Below, piece after piece: positions 1,821-38,400 of a DNA stretch of 44,388 nt. The stretch is taken from the sequence record PX136376.1, one strand, 5' to 3'. The notes under the pieces were generated by a model. It saw nothing but the letters and a program-made list of their open reading frames with translations, did not search any database and was not told where the DNA came from. The translations under genes and the position numbers were made by a program. The stretch is from a phage. The first letter of the stretch is position 1. The number at the start of each line of letters is the position of its first letter.

Positions 1821-3293
1821 ATGTTAACTATGAACGGTCAGAATCAGGGTGTTAAGACAAAACACCGGGAATGGCTGCATCACTTCGATAAATGGCAGAA
1901 GGTACGCCACGCGCTGGAAGGCGACCTTATTCGCTATCTGCGCAACGTCGGGAAGAACGAACCTGACCCGACCTACGCAGCCCAGCGCCAGGAAGAATAC
2001 GAGAACGGTGCTATCTGTTACAACTTCACTAAACGTACCCTGGCGGGGATGACGGGGTCAGTGATGCGCAAAGACCCTGAGCAGATTATCCCGCCTGAAC
2101 TTGAGTACCTGTTGCACAACGCTGACGGTTCGGGTGTAGGGCTGTGGCAGCACGCGCAGGATACGTTAATGGAGATTGACTCGATAGGACGCGGTGGGTT
2201 GCTGGTGGATGCCCCGGAAACAGCCGCAGCAACGGCGGCAGAGCAGAACGCGGGATTATTAAACCCGGTAATCGCATTCTATACCGCGGAGAACATTATC
2301 AACTGGAGACTCACCCGCATCGGTTCAGTGAACCGCGTGACGATGGTTGTATTGCGTGAGGCATGGGAATACTCGGAACCAGGCACTGAGTTTGAAACAA
2401 AATTCGGCGAGCAATACCGCGTCCTTGACCTGATTGATGGGCGCTACCGCCAGCGCATTTACCGCTTCGATGCAGAAGGTGGCGCACAGGGTGACGTAAA
2501 ACAAATCTTCCCGGAACTTGGCGGGCAATTGCGCGGTAAAATCCCGTTCACGTTTATTGGGGCAAGCAACAACGATGCGACCATCGACGACGCCCCTTTG
2601 CTACCGTTAGCTGAGCTTAATATCGGACATTTCCGCAACAGCGCAGACAATGAGGAATCCAGCTTCGTCGTGGGCCAACCCACTCTGTTCATCGCCCCCG
2701 GTGAGAACATGAGCATGGAGCAGTGGGCAGAAGCCAACCCACACGGCGTGCGCATGGGGTCGCGTTCAGGCCATAACATCGGTTACGGCGGAAACGCGTT
2801 CCTGGTCCAGGCGGGGGAAAACAACCTCGCCAAACAGAACATGCTGGATAAAGAGAATCAGGCAATCCAGATTGGCGCGCAGCTTATCACCCCGACGCAG
2901 CAAATCACCGCTGAATCGGCCCGTCTGCAACGCGGCGCTGATACGTCTGTTATGGCGACAATCGCACGTAACGTAAGCATGGCGTATACCGATGCGTTGC
3001 GCTGGGTAGCTGCGATGCTTGGGCTGCGTGAAGGCACAGAGGTTGAGTTCAAGCTGAATATGGAGTTCTTCCTGCAACCGATGACAGCTCAGGACCGCGC
3101 TCAGTGGATGGCGGATATTAACGCGGGCCTGTTACCCGCAACTGCTTACTATGCTGCGTTGCGCAAGGCGGGTGTAACTGACTGGACCGACGAGGACATT
3201 CAGACCGCTATCGAAGATGCACCGTTGCCATTAGGTACTGTTACTCAGGTGGCGGGGGAGATTCCTCCGTCGGCGCAGCAGCAACAGGAGTAA
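1821..3293 (+). CDS. portal protein
   Basis: 490 aa directly after terminase large subunit; RBS aagagga; size and position typical of portal; no motif-level confirmation. Confidence 0.7.
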   Translation: MLTMNGQNQGVKTKHREWLHHFDKWQKVRHALEGDLIRYLRNVGKNEPDPTYAAQRQEEYENGAICYNFTKRTLAGMTGSVMRKDPEQIIPPELEYLLHNADGSGVGLWQHAQDTLMEIDSIGRGGLLVDAPETAAATAAEQNAGLLNPVIAFYTAENIINWRLTRIGSVNRVTMVVLREAWEYSEPGTEFETKFGEQYRVLDLIDGRYRQRIYRFDAEGGAQGDVKQIFPELGGQLRGKIPFTFIGASNNDATIDDAPLLPLAELNIGHFRNSADNEESSFVVGQPTLFIAPGENMSMEQWAEANPHGVRMGSRSGHNIGYGGNAFLVQAGENNLAKQNMLDKENQAIQIGAQLITPTQQITAESARLQRGADTSVMATIARNVSMAYTDALRWVAAMLGLREGTEVEFKLNMEFFLQPMTAQDRAQWMADINAGLLPATAYYAALRKAGVTDWTDEDIQTAIEDAPLPLGTVTQVAGEIPPSAQQQQE

Positions 3294-3296
3294 AGA

Positions 3297-3325
3297 AAAA
3301 GGCCCCTTACAGGGCCTTAGTTTTA
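3297..3325. terminator. bidirectional rho-independent terminator (family copy 1)
   Basis: inverted repeat AAGGCCC/GGGCCTT with A-tract upstream and T-rich tract downstream, between convergent genes; stronger reading on minus strand. Confidence 0.55.
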
Positions 3326-3844
3326 TTTAACTCGCGCAGGCATTAACACCATAAATGCTGTATTTGAAAATGATATTTTACATCCTCTTGTTTGGTCCTG
3401 GAAATCGAAACGGGCAAATTCATTTTTGTATGCCTTAGAAATCTTGTACGCGTCCGCCAAATAGCGCAGAGTGAACCCTATGCTATCTACAGCACCTGGA
3501 GTAATGCGCGCCACGCGTCGCCAGTCAGGAAATTTTCCGTCTACAACATCAACCGGAAGGGTACATATAAGCGCACGACTATCGTCATAGAAAGAAACAT
3601 TGCCGTTGTCGTGGTCTACCTCAGCGTAGTTAAATTTAGAAGGCTCCCTCCCTTTGATGTCTATGAGAACTCCCGTTTCAACGTTTGTCTTCACATTGTC
3701 GCAGAACAATCTATGGCCATCCGTAGAAACTATCAATCCTTCAGGGTCTATGTAAAAAGCGTTAAAATAGTAGCGCACATCATTTTTAGCCCTGCAGATT
3801 TTCGCCCCTACATACGCGGGGAAAGTAATTACTGTAGTAACCAT
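3323..3844 (-). CDS. beta sliding clamp (DnaN)-like protein lacking clamp domain I
   Basis: 173 aa; motifs DVRYYFNA, LIVSTDGHRLF, VDGKFPDWRRV and C-terminal FMVLMPARVK resemble E. coli DnaN domain II/III motifs (recalled from memory); AGGAG RBS 8 nt before ATG; own promoter element upstream. Confidence 0.7.
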   Translation of the reverse strand: MVTTVITFPAYVGAKICRAKNDVRYYFNAFYIDPEGLIVSTDGHRLFCDNVKTNVETGVLIDIKGREPSKFNYAEVDHDNGNVSFYDDSRALICTLPVDVVDGKFPDWRRVARITPGAVDSIGFTLRYLADAYKISKAYKNEFARFDFQDQTRGCKISFSNTAFMVLMPARVK

Positions 3845-3863
3845 TTTTCATCTCCTGTTTAAG

Positions 3864-3900
3864 TTAACTGAATAGTACCCTATTATATTGGTGTCTGCAA
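3864..3900 (-). promoter_or_regulatory. conserved promoter/operator element, class 1 copy 1 (overlapping divergent sigma70-like promoters)
   Basis: minus-strand reading TTGCAG-N17-TACTAT toward the DnaN-like gene; plus-strand reading TTAACT-N17-TATATT toward head morphogenesis gene; central palindrome TAATAG-ggta-CTATTC. Confidence 0.5.
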
Positions 3901-3944
3901 ATATTATTTTTATGCGTTACACTGTCGATACTACAGGAGGGCTT

Positions 3945-4988
3945 ATGAGCTTACTTACATCCCTAATCAGCCACCAGATATGGCTACAACGCGCCGCATC
4001 CGGTGAAGTGAAAGACCTCACACCGTTCATTCAGGAAATGCGGGACGAAATCAAACGACAGGTGCTGTTATTCGGCGACGATGGGCGAAGCACTGCGCGA
4101 CTGAATAAACTGTTACGCGACCTCGAAGAGGCACTAACCGGGCTTACCGATGACTGGCAGACAAAGCTGACAGAAGACCTTAAGGAGCTGGCGGCGTATG
4201 AGGCTGAGTGGAACGTAAAGACGCTGACGGCTAACGTTAACGCGGAATTTGTTACACCTACCGCAGAACAGGTGTTGGCCGCTGCCGAGTTTCAGCCTCT
4301 GTCACTAAGGGACAAGCCGGTTGATTTCACTAAGCTGGTGGATGGCTGGGGTGAAACGGAGGTCGCGCGCCTGGTAACCGGCGTTAAGATGGGTTTTGTG
4401 CAAGGCCAGACAACACGGCAGATTATTAAGAATGTTGTTGGTGCCGGTGGGCTGGCGGACATCTCTGAGCGTAACGCAGCTACCGTAATCCGCACTGCGC
4501 TGTCCCACGTATCCAACGAAGCACGTAACGAGACGTATCGCCAGAACGACGACATTATCGAGAAGTACGAGTGGGTGTCAACGCTGGACAGCCGCACCAG
4601 TACGATTTGCAGGGCCAGAGACGGAATGACGTGGGAAATCGGTAAGGGCCCGATGCCGCCAGCGCATCCAAATTGTCGAAGTACCACAGCCCCGGTGATA
4701 AGTTCCGAGTTCGACTTCCTGGACGTAGGAGCTAAACGCGCGGCTAAAGGCGCAGACGGCGGTACCCAGGTAAGCGCGGACACCACCTATTACGAGTTCC
4801 TGAAACAACAACCAGCGTGGTTTCAGGATGAAGCGCTCGGCCCGGTGCGGGGTAAGATTTTCCGTAACAGTGGTATAACGCCGGAAGAGTTTCGCGTAAT
4901 ATCTGTAGATGGTTTCGGGAACCCGCTCACGCTTAAGCAGATGGCGGAACTCGATAAACGTGTTGCTGATTATCTGAAAGGGGAATAA
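3945..4988 (+). CDS. head morphogenesis protein (Mu F / SPP1 gp7-like minor head protein)
   Basis: C-terminal region contains HPNCRS motif typical of the Mu-F family; RBS acaggaggg before ATG at 3945 (ORF track frame opens at 3888); follows portal. Confidence 0.7.
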   Translation: MSLLTSLISHQIWLQRAASGEVKDLTPFIQEMRDEIKRQVLLFGDDGRSTARLNKLLRDLEEALTGLTDDWQTKLTEDLKELAAYEAEWNVKTLTANVNAEFVTPTAEQVLAAAEFQPLSLRDKPVDFTKLVDGWGETEVARLVTGVKMGFVQGQTTRQIIKNVVGAGGLADISERNAATVIRTALSHVSNEARNETYRQNDDIIEKYEWVSTLDSRTSTICRARDGMTWEIGKGPMPPAHPNCRSTTAPVISSEFDFLDVGAKRAAKGADGGTQVSADTTYYEFLKQQPAWFQDEALGPVRGKIFRNSGITPEEFRVISVDGFGNPLTLKQMAELDKRVADYLKGE

Positions 4989-5609: not shown

Positions 5610-5954
5610 TCATTTGCATTTCTCGTCGTATGTTTGTTGTAACTGCGACAGACGATTACCGGCTGTCATCTCGTCCATAGAAGGCCCGGCGCCCGTGTCC
5701 ATAAAGAACAGCGGAACAATCAGGAATGCGCCTGTAACACCGAGTACAACGTTAGTACCTATTTGCTTATTAACACGGTGCGTAGCGTTGGCTTGAGCTT
5801 GTTTTGTCGTGGCGATTCTCGATAGTAACTGATTACATGTTGCCGTTGTATCCCCTGCCTGATAAACCTGTAAAGCCGGGTCTGGCAACGACCTTACGCA
5901 ACCACTCAAACAAACGGCTACAACACCTGCTACTGCTAATTTAATATATTTCAT
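5610..5954 (-). CDS. lipoprotein (candidate superinfection-exclusion or envelope-modifying protein)
   Basis: 114 aa; signal peptide with lipobox LSGC (MKYIKLAVAGVVAVCLSGC); later hydrophobic stretch VVLGVTGAFLIVPLFF; antisense to structural operon. Confidence 0.65.
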   Translation of the reverse strand: MKYIKLAVAGVVAVCLSGCVRSLPDPALQVYQAGDTTATCNQLLSRIATTKQAQANATHRVNKQIGTNVVLGVTGAFLIVPLFFMDTGAGPSMDEMTAGNRLSQLQQTYDEKCK

Positions 5955-6052: not shown

Positions 6053-6077
6053 GACGGCCTCCCCGGTTCGATAGAAT

Positions 6078-6108
6078 GAATAGTACCCTATTATATTGGG
6101 GTGTGCAA
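6078..6108 (-). promoter_or_regulatory. conserved promoter/operator element, class 1 copy 2
   Basis: GAATAGTACCCTATTATATTGGGGTGTGCAA, identical to copy at 14882-14912; minus-strand TTGCAC-N17-TACTAT upstream of peptide-lipoprotein pair. Confidence 0.5.
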
Positions 6109-14855: not shown

Positions 14856-14881
14856 AATTATTTCCTCAGTAAGTTACATGT

Positions 14882-14912
14882 GAATAGTACCCTATTATAT
14901 TGGGGTGTGCAA
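14882..14912 (-). promoter_or_regulatory. conserved promoter/operator element, class 1 copy 3
   Basis: minus-strand TTGCAC-N17-TACTAT upstream of the three-gene cassette; plus-strand TTACAT-N17-TATATT toward tail chaperone gene. Confidence 0.5.
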
Positions 14913-28892: not shown

Positions 28893-31073
28893 CTACTTGG
28901 CGTATCTGTACATTTCGCTACCTTCTGCTACAAGAGGGAACCCCTCCGCCCACTCCGGTAATTCGCACATCAACCGCTCAAGCTCTGCAACATTGTATTC
29001 TGGCGTATCTGGTGTTTCGCAGATAATTTCGTCGTGTACGTGAAGCACAATAGGATAGCCGTTTGCTTCAACGTTCAGCAGTGCATTGGCCAGCAAATCA
29101 CGGCACAGCGCCTGAGTACAGTTTTCCACGAGTTTACCAGAGTAGGTGTACTGGAAGCCCCACTGACGGGTTAACTGGTTCTCCCCCTGGTACTTGATGC
29201 GTACGTTAGTAGACACTTTTCCATCTTCGTCTGTTTCTTTCGACACGCTTAACCCGACGCCCGGATAAGACATAACGCGACCCGACGGCAACGTCATGCG
29301 CAACCACCAGCCGGCGACTTTGTTGCCGTTGTTGTCTGTCTCTACGTTGCGCGAAAACTTAACCCCCCTAGGCCCCGCGGTGAACTCTTTACCTGGATTG
29401 CGGATAGCGGCCATAGCTGCGTCTTCAATATCTCGCCAGAAAGCTACTGTTTCAGGGTGTGACTCTCGCCACATACGCTTGATAGCGTCACAGGTACGCC
29501 ACACTTTCTTATCAAGAATATACGATGGTCGGTCATCCTTCTCCCCGGGTCGCGGCGGTCGCTTGGCTTCCTGAATACGTGCCCATTCATAGCCGCGTGC
29601 AGTAGCCGCCCAGATGTGGTCCGGGAAAGTACCGTCCATTGTTTTTGACATATCAACAAGGTCAAGTCCGAGGTTCTTAGCAAACTGAACGAAAGCGCCA
29701 ACACCACCAGCGTAGCCGAGGCCAAGCTCGCAGGCTTTACCAATCTGGCGCAAGTCTTTGCGTTCCTTCTTAATGTAATCCGGCTCCATGCCGAACATCT
29801 TACCCGCGGTTACACAGTAAATGTCCAGCCCGGCGCGGAACGTATCTAGCGCGGTTTCTTCGCCTGCCAGCCACGCAAGCCCCCGACCTTCAACGTTAGA
29901 GTAATCGGCGACGACAAACTTTTTTCCGGCTTCCGGGATAATGCAGCTACGCACCGTCGATGCCGTTAGCTTAGCGACATCGAAACGGCGATGCGCGCGG
30001 CCCTTAAGTAACGCTGAAATACCTTTATCCAGTTCATCATCGTGATAGTACCCACGCGCGAGGTTCTGCGGCTGAAATCCTTTACCGGCAAATCGTAATG
30101 TACGCTTGGCTCCGCCGTACTGAATGCAACCACGACGGCGGTCGTCCGACGAGCGCCCTAACAGCAGCGGGTTATATTTCGTTGACGCTGTGGACGCGGC
30201 CCCGAGGCGCATTTCGATAATCGTGCGTGCGTCGTCCGGTAAATCATCATCCGCCAACAGGTCGTTAAGCGTAGACTTCTGCGCGTTGTGGATGCGGTGC
30301 GCTGGTGCAAGTTCACGCAGAATCGGCAGGAAGTCTTTACCAGTAAGCGAGCCGCCGTATTTGCGCTGTGCTTCTTCCTGTAGCTGGGCCTTGTGTTTTT
30401 CCACGGCTTCAATCGCGGCTTCCGCCAGCGTCACATCAACCTTAAACCCACGGTCGTTAATCAACTGGTCCAGTTCCAGTACACGGTCTTCGAACTCGGA
30501 GTTACCCCAACGCGGCAGCTTATGGAAGACTTCACGCATCGCAGTGATGTCGCTCACGGCGTACCTGATGAACATCGCCCACTCGTCAGGGTGAGTTTCT
30601 GCGGTGTAGCGGCGGATTTTGTAGTTCTTCGGCGTCGGTTTAGAGAAACGCTTAATCAGAGCCTTGCCGCGTTTATCTTTCGCGTTGTCTGCAGACACGC
30701 CCAGCACTTCGCACAGCGCATCAAGAGAACCCGGCAGCGCGTGACGGAACGCCCAAATCATAGTATCAATGGTGTTACTTACCGGAATATCAAAGTCCCA
30801 GCAGTGTTTCATGATTAGGCGATCGAAAAGTCCACCGTTGTGCCACACCATCTTGATGCGGCTGTTGGGCTTAACAAGGCGGCGCAGTGCGCGGTGTAAA
30901 TCCCCCGGCATGTCGCTGCCGTCGGTGCAATCCCATACCCGCACAGGTTCGTCGTCAAAAGCATATGTACAGATAAGCACTTCGGTTGACGGGTGTTCGG
31001 CGTAAGCGTAAGAACCGACTTTCTTCAAATCGGCTTCGGAGAATGTTTCAAAGTCCAGGTATAAGTAGCTCAT
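28893..31073 (-). CDS. family A DNA polymerase with 3'-5' exonuclease domain
   Basis: exo motif YLDFETFS; Pol A motif A VVADYSNVEGR; motif B RQIGKACELGLGYAGG; ATG at 31073 with RBS aaggaaaag (ORF-track frame opens at 31127). Confidence 0.9.
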   Translation of the reverse strand: MSYLYLDFETFSEADLKKVGSYAYAEHPSTEVLICTYAFDDEPVRVWDCTDGSDMPGDLHRALRRLVKPNSRIKMVWHNGGLFDRLIMKHCWDFDIPVSNTIDTMIWAFRHALPGSLDALCEVLGVSADNAKDKRGKALIKRFSKPTPKNYKIRRYTAETHPDEWAMFIRYAVSDITAMREVFHKLPRWGNSEFEDRVLELDQLINDRGFKVDVTLAEAAIEAVEKHKAQLQEEAQRKYGGSLTGKDFLPILRELAPAHRIHNAQKSTLNDLLADDDLPDDARTIIEMRLGAASTASTKYNPLLLGRSSDDRRRGCIQYGGAKRTLRFAGKGFQPQNLARGYYHDDELDKGISALLKGRAHRRFDVAKLTASTVRSCIIPEAGKKFVVADYSNVEGRGLAWLAGEETALDTFRAGLDIYCVTAGKMFGMEPDYIKKERKDLRQIGKACELGLGYAGGVGAFVQFAKNLGLDLVDMSKTMDGTFPDHIWAATARGYEWARIQEAKRPPRPGEKDDRPSYILDKKVWRTCDAIKRMWRESHPETVAFWRDIEDAAMAAIRNPGKEFTAGPRGVKFSRNVETDNNGNKVAGWWLRMTLPSGRVMSYPGVGLSVSKETDEDGKVSTNVRIKYQGENQLTRQWGFQYTYSGKLVENCTQALCRDLLANALLNVEANGYPIVLHVHDEIICETPDTPEYNVAELERLMCELPEWAEGFPLVAEGSEMYRYAK

Positions 31074-31245
31074 TTCTTTTTCCTTAAATCCAGTGCCTTC
31101 GTTTCGCTTAATCTTATTTTCATACAATCACGGCAAATCCACACATGCCTGTACCCGGCCCGGTGCCCATCCGCGTACCACGGAAGCGGTTTCATATAGC
31201 GATAAACGTGCTTACAGAAAAACATTATTTTCGACCCCTAGTAAA

Positions 31246-31999: not shown

Positions 32000-32188
32000 A
32001 TAAAATTTCGCAATACGGACTATGTTCTCGAAATCATTCATATCAACGGGTTCGAATTCATCCTCCACATGGTTGTATCGCACCATCGTGCCGTTCAGGA
32101 ACGTAAACGATTCCGAATGGATATAACCGCCCCAGCGCCATATCATCACAAAATCTTTATCTGTGGGCATTTCATTTACTTGAATCAT
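31985..32188 (-). CDS. hypothetical protein (67 aa)
   Basis: ORF overlapping upstream nuclease stop by 4 nt. Confidence 0.45.
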   Translation of the reverse strand: MIQVNEMPTDKDFVMIWRWGGYIHSESFTFLNGTMVRYNHVEDEFEPVDMNDFENIVRIAKFYLTPE

Positions 32189-33426
32189 TCTAAATCCTCC
32201 TCTGTTACCCTATTCCACTCAGGACGTTTGTCGTCTGCCGTTGCAACACATGGTGCGCCTGGCTTACGGGTAATGAAGTCTTTCAGTTCTTCTTCCGGTA
32301 TGACTTTAACCGCTTCGGTTGGCGTCATGAGCACTTGCTTCATTAGCGCTATGCCATACTTGCCAGCCACTTTCTCTGCGTCTTTCCACGCACGATTGCC
32401 CGGGCGGCCCTCAACCAGCTTGTACCCCGGCACTTTCTTACCGGAATGCAACGCGGTGGCCATCGCTTTCTCAACCTTGTCGATGTGCTGGCGCAACAAC
32501 GGCAACTTCTCATATTCAGCTACGAGTTGCTCCGGCGTCAGTTCCAGCACAAAGTCGTCTTCCAGTTCTTCCGCCAGTACAGAATTAACCGTCTTTGTAC
32601 GCGCAGCGCATTGTTCAGAGAACCGGCACCACTGACAACCATCTACCGATGGCTTGAAGTCCGACGCTTTCAGGTTCTTCTTGCCACGGAAATACGCATC
32701 AAGCGCTAACAGCGCGCGTTTCTGTGCGAACTTAGCGAACAGTTCCAGTCCTTCAACCGAGATGTCCCACTCTGTCGCGCCCCCAGCGTAAGGCTGGAAG
32801 ATGACCAGACGAACGGTTGTTATGTTATAACGTCTCTTGAGTCGACGATAAACACCGAGAGCGTAAAGCATAAGCTGCTTGTTTTCTTTCGCTTCGACGC
32901 GATGCCGCCCGGTTTTCAGGTCGCCGATAATGAGCATGTGCTCGTCGGTGTTTGCCAGTTCCTGGACAGCAACGAGGTCAGCGGTTCCGAACGTCTCAAC
33001 GCCTTCATACCCCGGATGCAATACCTCAGTAAGATTGACACGCATTTCCAGCTTGGCGTAAGTCGCTACATCGATAATCGCTTTGCAGTAGTCAGTGTAC
33101 TTGCGCACTTGCTCAATCATGTCAGCCGTAATCAGTACCGCGCCCTTCATCGGGCTGATTAGCGCCTTAATCTGGCCTTTACCCTCGTCCAGCACATAAG
33201 CACCAACTTCACGTTCTAACGGCAGCGCAGTGCCACGGATATGAGCGTTGAGATGGACCTCGGCTATGGTGTGACACGCGGTCCCCGTAACAGCAGCTTT
33301 ACCGGACGTGTTAGGAATATCTTTTTCACAGGCCAGTGATGCACTGCACGCCAGCCACTTTTTGGCGCCAGACGGCGACAGTAAGGCGTGCACATCGTTA
33401 TTGCCACCGCGTTCTTTTAGAATCAT
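32185..33426 (-). CDS. PD-(D/E)XK nuclease with Fe-S-type cysteine cluster (Cas4/RecB-like exonuclease)
   Basis: 413 aa; IGDLK core; Cys pairs near N-terminus (LACSASLAC) and C-terminus (CQWCRFSEQC). Confidence 0.6.
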   Translation of the reverse strand: MILKERGGNNDVHALLSPSGAKKWLACSASLACEKDIPNTSGKAAVTGTACHTIAEVHLNAHIRGTALPLEREVGAYVLDEGKGQIKALISPMKGAVLITADMIEQVRKYTDYCKAIIDVATYAKLEMRVNLTEVLHPGYEGVETFGTADLVAVQELANTDEHMLIIGDLKTGRHRVEAKENKQLMLYALGVYRRLKRRYNITTVRLVIFQPYAGGATEWDISVEGLELFAKFAQKRALLALDAYFRGKKNLKASDFKPSVDGCQWCRFSEQCAARTKTVNSVLAEELEDDFVLELTPEQLVAEYEKLPLLRQHIDKVEKAMATALHSGKKVPGYKLVEGRPGNRAWKDAEKVAGKYGIALMKQVLMTPTEAVKVIPEEELKDFITRKPGAPCVATADDKRPEWNRVTEEDLE

Positions 33427-35172: not shown

Positions 35173-35190
35173 AGCCCCTTTCTTTTTACC
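35162..35190 (+). terminator. rho-independent terminator
   Basis: AGGGGCTT-AAAGCCCCT hairpin followed by TTCTTTTT. Confidence 0.6.
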
Positions 35191-37448
35191 TATTCCAAAT
35201 CCTCCTCTGTCACCACCAGCATCTCATTTGGTTCGTATAGTGTCTTCGGCCTTAATCTATCCCCTATTCTTTCGGGTATACGATATGTTCTCGGTACTAC
35301 TTCGCCGTTAGCATCGCAACCAAGCATTAGTTCTCCATCTTTCAACATTTTATCAAGATGGGTGTTAGTCACAGAGAAGTCACCGGAACGAGCCACTATC
35401 TGCTGCTGAGTAAAACCGCGACCTGTGTCATCTGACTGTTGCAGGTCTTCCAGTGCCGAAAGTATTGACTCCTTCCTTACTTCATCCCTGCCGCGTTTAA
35501 CTTCTTCCTTTACTTTTTGCTTACCTTCTTTCGTCAACCCTTCTTCCCGCTCTTTCTCCTCGTCAGTTTTGAACGGCTCGAAACCCCACGGCATCAACAC
35601 AAGCGCCTTGTGTGGTTCAGGCAGGTCCAGGTTTACGATTGTGCCGTATTCCTCTGTGCTACCCAGGAACTCAACCGCTCGGTATTCTTTAGGCGGCGGC
35701 GCTTCACGGAACTGTACCGACTCCAGCACCATGCCAACCGTCTTCTGCTGAGGCCCGTGCTTGAATTTCGAGTGATATACGTTTATCTGACGGTCGGTTG
35801 CACGTTCGATTGTCAGTTCCACGTCAACACCCGCATACAGCGCCCCACTGCCGCGTGCTTTCTTTCCACCCTTCGGCGTATGGTGGACAACGCCTACTGC
35901 GGCTTTAGTTGCATCGCGTACTTCTTTCAGAATGGCGATAACTTTACCCATGCCGATTGCTGTTGATGAACTGTTCTCGTCGAACTTATCAATCGTCAGG
36001 GCCAGCGTCTGGTTAAGGGTGTCGAAGGCAACCATGCCAATAGGTTCATCCCCTGCGGTTTCGCGCATCCTGCGGATTAGAGCTGGAATTTTTTTATCAC
36101 CATGCGTAGCGAGTATTTCGCCCATATCGATGACATGTACATAATCTTTACCTTCCTCGCCATATTTAGCCGCGAGTGCATCAATACGTGTTCGTGTAGC
36201 TGCACCACCCTCGCCGTCAATATAGAAATGGTGGCAACGTTGGGTGTCAGCCCCCGCAAACCGGTACCCGGCGGCGCTCAGGTACATCATCCCCAGCGTA
36301 TAGAATGATTTGTACGTGCCGGATTCCCCGACAATATCCCAGATACAATCCGACGGCATGTACCCCTCAACGACGAAATCAGCCTTTACCGGTTCTGGTA
36401 ACTCGTCCTCCTCTGAGTCCTCGTCGTCTTCCAGGTCGTCGAGGCTGCATGAGACAGATTCACGCGCCCCCCAACCGATGGCCTCTGCGACTTCACTGAA
36501 CGGCAGCCCGGTCGCATCGCACGCGTACTTCCACACCTCTTTCGGTGACAGGCCTTCTGTCGCCGTAATGTCTGTGTCGTGAATCATGGTTACGTTTGGC
36601 GCTTCATACCCCTCGCGCGGGAAGCACAGCAGGAAGTCGTCCGGGCGCGGTGTCGGGTCGCTGTAGTTTTCGGCATGTTCCGGTGTGGCTGGCATCTTAA
36701 GGCCGCGCGGCGTCATGACGCCGCCGTACTCAAACGCCAGTGCTTCAAACGCGTCTGTAAACGCGGTGCGCAGTTCTTCCGGTATCTGGTAATCCGATGC
36801 GCTGCTAACGTCAACGGCTGGGATGCCTTCCAGTAACTCGTTCGGGTCGATCAGGTCGTTGCGGCGCGACCAGATAACGGTAGCGCCGACCGGCGGCAGG
36901 TACATCGGCTGCGACAGAGTGAACCCGCTGCGGTCCGCACCCATGCCTTTGAAGAAGTGCTCCAGCAACCCATGACGAACACGGATGATGTCACCACCCT
37001 CCACCGGACGGGCCAGTGGCATTACGACGCGAAAGCGCGGTGACTCATCAGTATGTGATGCCGTGGTATAGAGGCACATGGCCCAGCGGCTGCGCTTAAC
37101 CAGGCGCACCGCTTCCTGATACTCTTCCGGTGTTGTGCTGTCGAAATCCAGATAGGCCAGCGACGATTTGCTTACAGACGCATCGCAGCGGTAGAAAAAA
37201 CCTTTACGCGCTTGCTTAAAGTCTCCAGTTTCCGGGTCTTTTACGGTGCTGTGCGTTGAGTCGCACGCGGCGGTGATATAACCGGGCGCGGTCTTAGGGT
37301 TAATCCCGTCGCGAACGGCATCGAGCGGCTGGATTAACTCTTTCAGGTCGTCCAGTGTTGCCGTGTGTGCGGTTCTGACATTTATATCCTTTTTTCCCGC
37401 CCGCGCGTTGCGGCGTGACCACGAGTAGGATAAAATTACATCGGACAT
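35190..37448 (-). CDS. putative replicative primase-helicase
   Basis: 752 aa; Walker A GESGTYKS in C-terminal RecA-fold region; large N-terminal domain of primase-like size; function inferred. Confidence 0.6.
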   Translation of the reverse strand: MSDVILSYSWSRRNARAGKKDINVRTAHTATLDDLKELIQPLDAVRDGINPKTAPGYITAACDSTHSTVKDPETGDFKQARKGFFYRCDASVSKSSLAYLDFDSTTPEEYQEAVRLVKRSRWAMCLYTTASHTDESPRFRVVMPLARPVEGGDIIRVRHGLLEHFFKGMGADRSGFTLSQPMYLPPVGATVIWSRRNDLIDPNELLEGIPAVDVSSASDYQIPEELRTAFTDAFEALAFEYGGVMTPRGLKMPATPEHAENYSDPTPRPDDFLLCFPREGYEAPNVTMIHDTDITATEGLSPKEVWKYACDATGLPFSEVAEAIGWGARESVSCSLDDLEDDEDSEEDELPEPVKADFVVEGYMPSDCIWDIVGESGTYKSFYTLGMMYLSAAGYRFAGADTQRCHHFYIDGEGGAATRTRIDALAAKYGEEGKDYVHVIDMGEILATHGDKKIPALIRRMRETAGDEPIGMVAFDTLNQTLALTIDKFDENSSSTAIGMGKVIAILKEVRDATKAAVGVVHHTPKGGKKARGSGALYAGVDVELTIERATDRQINVYHSKFKHGPQQKTVGMVLESVQFREAPPPKEYRAVEFLGSTEEYGTIVNLDLPEPHKALVLMPWGFEPFKTDEEKEREEGLTKEGKQKVKEEVKRGRDEVRKESILSALEDLQQSDDTGRGFTQQQIVARSGDFSVTNTHLDKMLKDGELMLGCDANGEVVPRTYRIPERIGDRLRPKTLYEPNEMLVVTEEDLE

Positions 37449-38337: not shown

Positions 38338-38368
38338 TTGCACACCCCAATATAATAGGATACTATTC
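38338..38368 (+). promoter_or_regulatory. conserved promoter/operator element, class 1 copy 4 (rightward)
   Basis: TTGCAC-N17-TACTAT with palindrome TAATAG-gata-CTATTC; 30 nt upstream of RBS gaggag and gene at 38401. Confidence 0.5.
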
Positions 38369-38400
38369 ACTTATTGAAACAAGACAGAGGAGTGATGGTT

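Follow-up and report, generated by a model that had tools for sequence, protein, structure and literature searches.

Why would a phage with a replication machinery of its own carry, within its head module and in the opposite orientation, a gene for a shortened bacterial sliding clamp? The window analyzed here, the whole 44,388-bp stretch of record PX136376.1, is the complete genome of a Kagunavirus-type (Guernseyvirinae) E. coli siphophage, and the surroundings of the locus are ~90% identical to phages fBC-Eco01 and SHAK7693. The coding sequence in question occupies positions 3323..3844 of the minus strand (ATG start at 3844, stop codon at 3323-3325) and specifies a truncated DnaN-like protein of 173 aa, which we call the mini-clamp. 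It is flanked on one side by the portal gene (1821-3293, plus strand) and on the other by a Mu F-like head-morphogenesis gene whose most likely start is the ATG at 3945, as in fBC-Eco01. A 156-aa shadow ORF on the opposite strand (3392..3862, plus strand) was considered not real, since the homology and the selection signal all fall in the minus-strand frame; comparison of the mini-clamp gene with two Kagunavirus relatives gave a dN/dS of 0.12, indicating purifying selection. An earlier note on this DNA had pointed to four DnaN-like motifs in the product and had set them against E. coli motifs. All four are present in the translation, and the E. coli motifs (HQDVRYYLNG, VATDGHRLA, VDGRFPDYRRV, and YVVMPMRL) agree with the DnaN sequence of MG1655.

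The gene was also said to have its own ribosome-binding site, a copy of a conserved promoter element, and a terminator, and all of these were located. A Shine-Dalgarno sequence, AGGAG, can be read at 3852..3856 (minus strand), 7 nt upstream of the ATG. Upstream of it, at 3869..3900 on the same strand, lies a conserved 32-nt promoter-like element, TTGCAGACACCAATATAATAGGGTACTATTCA, in which TTGCAG and TACTAT stand 17 nt apart and a TATAAT is embedded. The 15-nt core of this element is found unchanged at 6083-6097 and 14887-14901 (both minus strand) and with one mismatch at 38349-38363 (plus strand), and matches to the core number six where 0.89 would be expected. Near-identical copies precede three other transcription units: two more antisense islands among the structural genes, which start at 5954 and 14855, and a block of small early-type ORFs that runs rightward from near 38374. 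We infer that the four units preceded by the element are co-regulated early in infection. On the downstream side, a bidirectional intrinsic-terminator hairpin (3299..3318, both strands) separates the portal stop at 3293 from the mini-clamp stop at 3323; the G+C hairpin is followed by a T-run, and a terminator-like site was called on each strand.

Terminator, coding sequence, ribosome-binding site, and promoter element together form a self-contained mobile cassette (3297..3912, minus strand), delimited by a block match in relatives. This block alone is ~91% identical in fFiEco02, fPoEco01, Ivi, fEg-Eco19, XY2, and others, and several of these phages (fFiEco02, fPoEco01, Ivi, and others) carry it in an alternative slot, after the gene for an Ig-like protein and before the spanins. 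The copies in fBC-Eco01 and fFiEco02 differ by only four nucleotides, all synonymous, yet they sit in different slots. The flanking portal and head genes have matches in ~135 Kagunavirus-like phage records, of which 23 have the mini-clamp gene. In M01 and K-02 the slot is taken by an unrelated antisense ORF of ~94 aa, and the complete K-02 genome, searched with the profile in all six frames, yielded no family member (best E value, 2.9). The polymerase (PolA) and helicase-primase of K-02 are 93% and 87% identical, respectively, to those of the window. Since K-02 has a near-identical replisome and no copy, and since the gene occurs in only a minority of the related records, it is not an obligate part of the replisome. 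The description of the gene as a moron, that is, an accessory gene, thus held up, and the proposed check of conservation in related phages revealed patchy occurrence in two different slots.

Is the product truly related to DnaN? In a phmmer search of all PDB sequences, beta clamps made up 27 of the 30 matches, and the three non-clamp matches were the weakest. E. coli beta residues 144-254 aligned with query residues 16-118 (E = 7e-6), and a second, weaker stretch paired beta 311-365 with query 116-171. A profile built from 62 homologs matched DnaN with an E value of 8.7e-38. Pfam alone was marginal (DNA_pol3_beta_2, E = 0.05, 14.3 bits, below the 27-bit cutoff), and the score against the NCBIfam model TIGR00663 was likewise below the family cutoff (17.6 bits versus a threshold of 137.65 bits). 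The similarity of the 173-aa protein to DnaN is nonetheless well beyond chance. An AlphaFold2 model computed from the 62-homolog alignment was confident and compact as a monomer (pLDDT 95.8, pTM 0.91). In its secondary structure, a first unit consists of a strand (3-7), a helix (8-17), and three strands; a second consists of a strand (59-63), a nonhelical segment (64-72), and three strands; and a third consists of a helix (126-138) and three strands. The model therefore comprises three units of the beta-alpha-beta3 type, i.e., 1.5 clamp domains. All significant structural matches of the model were clamps, and the Foldseek alignments extended over ~257 columns to the DnaN C terminus. Profile searches and structure prediction, two of the checks that had been proposed, thus both returned a DnaN-like protein.

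Which parts of the clamp have been kept? At its N terminus, the mini-clamp begins where DnaN domain II begins (~residue 125). The retained regions are DnaN ~125-254 (domain II) and ~311-366 (the C-terminal half of domain III), whereas residues 1-124 (domain I) and ~255-310 (the N-terminal half of domain III) are absent. The phmmer, profile, and fold results agree on this point and bear out the earlier description of a DnaN homolog that lacks domain I and consists of domain II and a shortened domain III. The model of this lineage does not form the second helix of domain II, which would lie at the free end on the domain I side. The last unit, with its IGF(N/T)..YL.D motif and terminal (V/I)MP(M/A)R, matches DnaN 313-366. 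A colinear profile alignment to DnaN 255-297 had suggested a C-terminal truncation that keeps the N-terminal half of domain III instead. We rejected this reading because DnaN 313-366 contains the counterparts of the IGFN..Y..D and terminal MPMR motifs, because the Foldseek alignments reach the DnaN C terminus, and because only the C-terminal half of domain III adjoins domain II and completes the binding pocket; we ascribe the colinear match to the repeat within the clamp fold. In the beta dimer, hydrophobic contacts are made by domain I residues I78 and F106 against domain III residues I272 and L273, and ion pairs join K74 to E298, K74 to E300, R96 to E300, and R103 to E304 (PMC11139829, a 2024 review). 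All of these residues lie in the two regions that have no counterpart in the mini-clamp, so that both halves of the head-to-tail interface are missing. Only one edge of the clamp type is left free, formed by the final strand of domain II (residues 92-101); this strand is among the least conserved segments of the family, and the helix expected to flank it is missing.

The retained arc does include the pocket in which clamp-binding motifs dock. In E. coli beta, subsite I of this pocket is formed by R152, L155, T172, G174, H175, R176, L177, P242, R246, V247, V360, and M362, and subsite II by H175, N320, Y323, V344, M362, P363, M364, and R365 (PMC11139829). When these residues were mapped onto the mini-clamp through the family profile, 14 of 18 proved identical, compared to 34 of 142 elsewhere (Fisher p = 1.2e-5). 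The identical residues are R24, T41, G43, H44, R45, L46, P106, R110, V111, Y128, V166, M168, P169, and R171. The differences are L155F, N320T, V344T, and M364A; three of the four are conservative, and position V344 varies among real clamps too. The specificity of the pocket may nevertheless differ from that of beta, given these four positions. Across 62 family members, which average 28% identity, conservation was 0.80 in the pocket columns and 0.40 in the rest (Mann-Whitney p = 2e-7), and the invariant or nearly invariant columns were T41, G43, H44, R45, P106, W108, R109, R110, Y128, M168, P169, and R171. The DNA-contacting loop DVRYY and the C-terminal MPxR are conserved with DnaN as well. 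Pocket residues are the most conserved in DnaN generally, and part of this signal could reflect structural inheritance. The mini-clamp resembles a clamp pared down to the shortest unbroken arc on which the docking pocket can still be presented. Titration of clamp-binding proteins, one of the activities that the earlier note had offered, fits this pocket conservation, the strongest signal of the analysis.

The same architecture is widespread. The PHROG profile phrog_3007 matched the mini-clamp over its full length (residues 13-172, E = 7.4e-37); the short DnaN-like phage proteins gathered under this profile are the mini-clamp's own family, and we found no difference from them. By tblastn, homologs were present in 228 phage records, with hosts that include Escherichia, Salmonella, Klebsiella, Vibrio, Proteus, Burkholderia, and others. 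An exhaustive profile search of 1.84 billion representative sequences yielded 308 matches at E <= 1e-30; among the best 150 of these, 149 were 141 to 255 aa long, and one was a full-length DnaN. Proteins of this size and architecture recur in hundreds of 50%-identity clusters, and BFVD holds many phage proteins of 163 to 266 aa with the same fold (query-normalised TM-scores of up to 0.87 for the closest), among them proteins from phages that infect Bacillus, Gordonia, and Rhodococcus. The family gene again lies antisense within the head module in Dhillonvirus EP23, Skatevirus, and Klebsiella phage 6991, next to Nmad5 in EP23 and to a ParB-HTH/KorB protein in the other two. A phage with a P22-type portal has it in the early region with DUF932, Prim-Pol, DUF5906, and PolA. 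In temperate Vibrio phage R20L and in a Pseudomonas aeruginosa integrase island, the gene occurs with no polymerase, either in the vicinity of genes for RdgC, exonuclease, SSB, and methylase or immediately behind an NA37 gene. No neighbor was conserved across the family contexts examined, which included Nmad5, ParB-HTH/KorB, DUF932, NA37, and RdgC/SSB.

We then considered the replication proteins with which the mini-clamp might work. The window encodes a family A polymerase (PolA), an AAA_25 helicase-primase, and an Enc34-type SSB, as well as a DUF2800/PD-(D/E)XK nuclease, an SNF2 helicase, a C5 methyltransferase, and nucleases. A six-frame profile search of the window found no second clamp homolog, and no clamp loader was found among the window replication proteins scanned or in the K-02 annotation; the earlier statement that the phage has no other clamp or clamp-loader parts is in line with these searches, and the phage has a PolA/helicase-primase replisome of its own. 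An obligate processivity role for the mini-clamp with phage PolA is unlikely, as K-02, whose PolA is 93% identical, lacks a family member. The K-02-type PolA is marked by a basic insertion of 23 aa; the insertion was present in 42 records, compared with 23 that have the mini-clamp gene, and the idea that gene and insertion replace one another was ruled out because Ivi and NRG857CP3 carry both. The phage PolA, helicase-primase, SSB, DUF2800 nuclease, and SNF2 helicase contain no canonical clamp-binding motif, which points to host ligands. A single strong motif in the vicinity, QVLLF in the neighboring head-morphogenesis protein, was considered as a ligand and set aside, as it is equally present in K-02, which lacks the gene, and is absent from EP23. 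The neighbors of distant family members showed no consistent clamp-binding motif. A PADLOC search gave no match (0 families at E <= 1), and the literature searched offered no link of the family to anti-defense.

On the basis of these results, we propose that the mini-clamp is a soluble, non-ring decoy or adaptor that offers its pocket to host clamp-binding proteins, a reading to which we assign a probability of about 0.45. The protein would be a soluble derivative of beta that does not form a ring and has been reduced to the smallest contiguous arc able to form the pocket, namely, the two halves of domain II and the adjoining C-terminal half of domain III. It would probably be expressed early, from the promoter element common to the early-gene region, and is predicted to bind proteins with clamp-binding motifs of the QLxLF type. 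As it would neither enter the beta ring nor encircle DNA in the manner of beta, it could act as a competitor or sink for such proteins. The known users of the beta pocket include the clamp-loader subunit delta, Pol III alpha and epsilon, Hda, Pol II, Pol IV, Pol V, and MutS/MutL (PMC11139829), to which RecB has recently been added through its QVEMEF motif at 1018-1023 (PMC13254535). Candidate ligands would accordingly include delta, Pol III alpha and epsilon, Hda, Pol I and ligase, the translesion polymerases, MutS/MutL, and RecB. Delta is of special interest, as its affinity for monomeric beta is ~50-fold that for the beta dimer (PMC11139829). Withdrawal of such ligands from host beta would favor a phage whose PolA/helicase-primase replisome works independently of a clamp. 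Host ligands are the most economical assumption, since the pocket is nearly identical to that of host beta, the phage replisome proteins are free of the motif, and the gene is optional. Precedents for phages that target or exploit beta are Twort Gp168 (PMC8565349), MuC of phage Mu (PMC12867686), and a lambda sRNA that raises DnaN.

The relatives in temperate elements that have no polymerase of their own (Vibrio phage R20L and the P. aeruginosa integrase island) speak against a decoy. Such elements presumably depend on host Pol III and would harm themselves by wholesale sequestration of Pol III or the clamp loader; the role of the family as a whole may therefore be selective sequestration, or recruitment instead of inhibition. 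We regard as somewhat less probable than the reading for the mini-clamp itself the broader proposal of a large, unrecognized phage family of pocket-only clamp mimics that, with a docking pocket identical to that of beta, would sequester selected host clamp-binding proteins off DNA. If it is correct, these proteins would represent a new class of host-takeover or anti-defense factors that act by mimicry of a hub protein, with delta, Hda, MutS/MutL, and the newly reported RecB motif as candidates for sequestration.

Can the pocket serve recruitment rather than withdrawal? The mini-clamp could be an adaptor or tether through which a host clamp-binding enzyme (Pol I, ligase, Pol III core, or RecBCD), or a phage protein with a noncanonical motif, is brought to the phage replisome or to recombination intermediates. 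It would then be a docking platform independent of a clamp loader, by analogy with the non-ring processivity subunits of herpesviruses. The conservation of the pocket is as compatible with this role as with a decoy, and the family usually occurs in phages with PolA, a helicase-primase, an SSB of the Enc34/gp2.5 type, and a DUF2800 nuclease. In temperate elements, family genes stand next to SSB, RdgC, exonuclease, or NA37 genes, and an adaptor is compatible with the lack of a polymerase there. The pI of the mini-clamp, 8.3 versus 5.25 for DnaN, is a further point in its favor. However, close relatives whose replisome is near-identical do without the gene, canonical motifs are absent from the phage replisome proteins and inconsistent in neighboring genes, and no gene partner is conserved across contexts. 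We regard this adaptor role as less probable than the proposed reading, though more probable than the alternatives that follow.

A genuine clamp of a new build appears improbable. In such a structure, two copies would pair by their half-domains and so restore a whole domain, which makes a half ring of three domains, and two such dimers would close a six-domain ring (4 x 1.5 domains). Arithmetic and pseudo-symmetry would allow it, as three beta-alpha-beta3 motifs, inferred from the secondary structure of the model, times four give 12; a truncated half-domain should expose what was formerly the core of a domain, and the DNA-contacting DVRYY loop is conserved. The second helix of domain II, which would line the channel at the ring-closing end, is missing from the model, however, and the ring-closing edge strand (92-101) is poorly conserved. 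No encoded clamp loader was found, the gene is accessory, and the monomer was modeled with very high confidence without a partner. A natural relative of beta counts in favor of a ring. E. coli beta* (Skaliter, Paz-Elizur, and Livneh, 1996) is reported to be a UV-inducible internal translation product of dnaN of ~26 kDa that consists of domains II and III, oligomerizes, and acts as a working, loader-dependent clamp. This derivative, which lacks domain I and keeps the pocket region, is the closest analogue of the mini-clamp in architecture; beta* keeps the whole of domain III, whereas the mini-clamp lacks half of it and belongs to a separate, diverged gene family. Self-assembly of the mini-clamp into a ring would amount to a fourth way to build a six-domain clamp.

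Still less probable is the activity that the earlier note had placed first, the capping or poisoning of host beta dimers through a retained domain III surface. Pairing of the mini-clamp with a beta monomer at the ring interface would block dimerization or loading. By pseudo-symmetry, the last strand of domain II, which is free, could in principle imitate its counterpart in domain I and pair with domain III of beta, and inhibition of beta by a phage protein is known (Gp168, PMC8565349). Our data did not support this idea. The half of the interface contributed by domain III (I272, L273, E298, E300, and E304) is absent, and so are the domain I residues I78, F106, K74, R96, and R103; with every dimer-interface residue in the missing regions, capping through domain III is without support. 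The half of domain III that was retained adjoins domain II and completes the pocket. The helix equivalent to the one that bears I78 is missing in the model, and the candidate edge strand (92-101) is poorly conserved, in contrast to the pocket, where conservation is concentrated. Finally, a functionless, decaying fragment of a captured dnaN, as its reduced length and its below-cutoff Pfam and TIGR00663 scores might suggest, was effectively refuted by the dN/dS of 0.12 between Kagunavirus copies, by the comparable shortness of 149 of the best 150 profile matches and the same fold in many BFVD phage proteins, and by the very confident compact model and the intact expression signals.

How does the mini-clamp compare with known systems? 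It resembles DnaN (E. coli beta; PF00712/PF02767/PF02768, TIGR00663) in both sequence and fold across domain II and the C-terminal half of domain III. DnaN has 366 aa and three clamp-fold domains, in contrast to 173 aa and 1.5 domains, and the mini-clamp is further set apart in being phage borne, accessory, without a dedicated loader, and without the second domain II helix in the model. Judged by domain number, dimer interface, and family thresholds, it is not a DnaN clamp; judged by its pocket, it is like one. In concept, the closest proteins are phage P1 Hot, a homolog of a Pol III part, and Gp168 and MuC, which target or exploit beta. Hot is a homolog of Pol III theta that binds epsilon and is a full-length functional substitute; like the mini-clamp it is a phage-encoded accessory homolog of a Pol III holoenzyme component, whereas the mini-clamp is truncated and cannot replace beta. 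The herpesvirus proteins UL42, UL44, BMRF1, and PF-8 have two full clamp-fold domains, bind DNA directly, and are obligate polymerase subunits; the structural similarity of the mini-clamp to them is far below that to beta, and its gene is dispensable. Twort Gp168 (PMC8565349) and Mu MuC (PMC12867686) are likewise phage proteins that disturb or make use of the beta interaction network during infection, but they bind beta and are not clamp homologs, whereas the mini-clamp would mimic the beta pocket and compete for its ligands.

In bacteria, the beta clamp serves as the central docking hub for replication and repair, and it is also a target for antibiotics. A stable protein of 20 kDa that occurs naturally and is pocket only would be a new phage tool, one that imitates the hub instead of binding it, and would also serve as a minimal scaffold for studying and screening pocket ligands. 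The DnaN similarity as such is already known and annotated in GenBank, where family genes are labeled "DNA polymerase III sliding clamp/beta subunit" or "beta clamp domain-containing protein." A full-text literature search, which in its broadest form brought up only general papers on clamps, found no study of the short DnaN-like family and no mention of the truncation, and the 1.5-domain pocket architecture of these 140- to 255-aa phage proteins is not described in the searchable literature. Genome papers take family proteins for processivity factors; the fBC-Eco01 paper, for example, takes gp04c for a normal processivity clamp (PMC9825357). Some family genes carry a label derived from phrog_3007, "RusA-like Holliday junction resolvase," which we rejected: a Pfam search at E <= 10 gave no match to RusA (PF05866), and the fold is that of a clamp. 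Hundreds of phage genes annotated as a DNA polymerase III beta subunit or sliding clamp, or as a RusA-like resolvase, encode neither a full-length clamp nor a resolvase.

The gene for the mini-clamp, the truncated 173-aa DnaN-like protein, was compared between phages fBC-Eco01 (L001, 3371-3892) and fFiEco02 (L002, 4001-4522). The two copies differ at only 4 of 522 nt, all synonymous, whereas their slots are distinct: between the portal and head-morphogenesis genes in fBC-Eco01 and between those for an Ig-like protein and a spanin in fFiEco02. Because near-identical copies occupy different genomic slots, this sequence comparison indicates that the cassette was recently relocated or exchanged.

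An element of ∼32 nt, with the consensus TTGCA(C/G)AC(C/A)CCAATATAATAGG(G/A)TACTATTCA, was found in four copies in the window (3869-3900, 6077-6108, and 14881-14912 on the minus strand and 38338-38369 on the plus strand), each with a start codon ∼25 to 35 nt downstream. Judged by sequence, three of the four copies putatively drive antisense islands within the structural module, and the remaining one a rightward block of small early-type ORFs. The element is probably the early promoter class of this phage, and recombination at its copies may also be what moves moron cassettes from slot to slot. The mechanical call for the head-morphogenesis ORF (3888-4988, plus strand) begins at a TTG at 3888 and overlaps the divergent promoter element. 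The ATG at 3945 (MSLLTSLISHQ...), whose equivalent opens the annotated gene in relatives, is the likelier start codon.

In phages of other genera, namely EP23 (L003, 5601-6365), Skate (L004, 4897-5706), and Klebsiella phage 6991 (L006, 3636-4451), the mini-clamp has companions in its antisense island: either a DNA-binding protein of ParB-HTH/KorB-like type or a protein with the nucleotide-modification-associated domain Nmad5. These neighborhoods hint that the islands gather DNA-transaction accessory genes. Outside phages, a 232-aa member of the mini-clamp's family overlaps the stop of an upstream gene for NA37, a YejK-type nucleoid-associated protein, in a small integrase-bearing island of Pseudomonas aeruginosa (GCA_053318655.1 contig, L013, 6974-8699); the two may form a functional pair.

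The helicase-primase (35190-37448, minus strand) and the DUF2800 PD-(D/E)XK nuclease (32185-33426, minus strand) of the window end in an identical acidic tail, VTEEDLE, and the single-stranded DNA-binding protein SSB ends in an acidic stretch followed by RRERRRR. These tails resemble the acidic C-terminal docking tails shared by T7 gp4 and gp2.5, an analogy that suggests a common partner, for example PolA. VTEEDLE is retained in K-02, a close relative lacking the mini-clamp gene, and the tails are thus independent of the mini-clamp; EP23 carries TDEDL/TDDDL variants. K-02-type PolA contains a lysine-rich 23-aa insertion (PKNKKKKVRYDWMSEKDWWRVTHPLSY; L010, 15379-15459) that is absent from the window PolA (28893-31127, minus strand; insertion site around residues 365 to 369). 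This insertion, found in 42 phage records, showed no alternation with the mini-clamp gene.

Automatic annotation widely labels the family (PHROG phrog_3007) a "RusA-like Holliday junction resolvase," for example in GenBank records OR594180, NC_016566, and PQ423993. Neither sequence nor fold supports this label, which is spreading through phage genome annotations. Some members (P0181, P0152, P0061, and P0072; 241 to 292 aa) extend 40 to 70 aa beyond the C-terminal MPMR, and some of these extensions are predicted to be acidic or coiled-coil. Since the C-terminus lines the docking pocket in beta, such extensions could, by analogy, modulate or occupy it.
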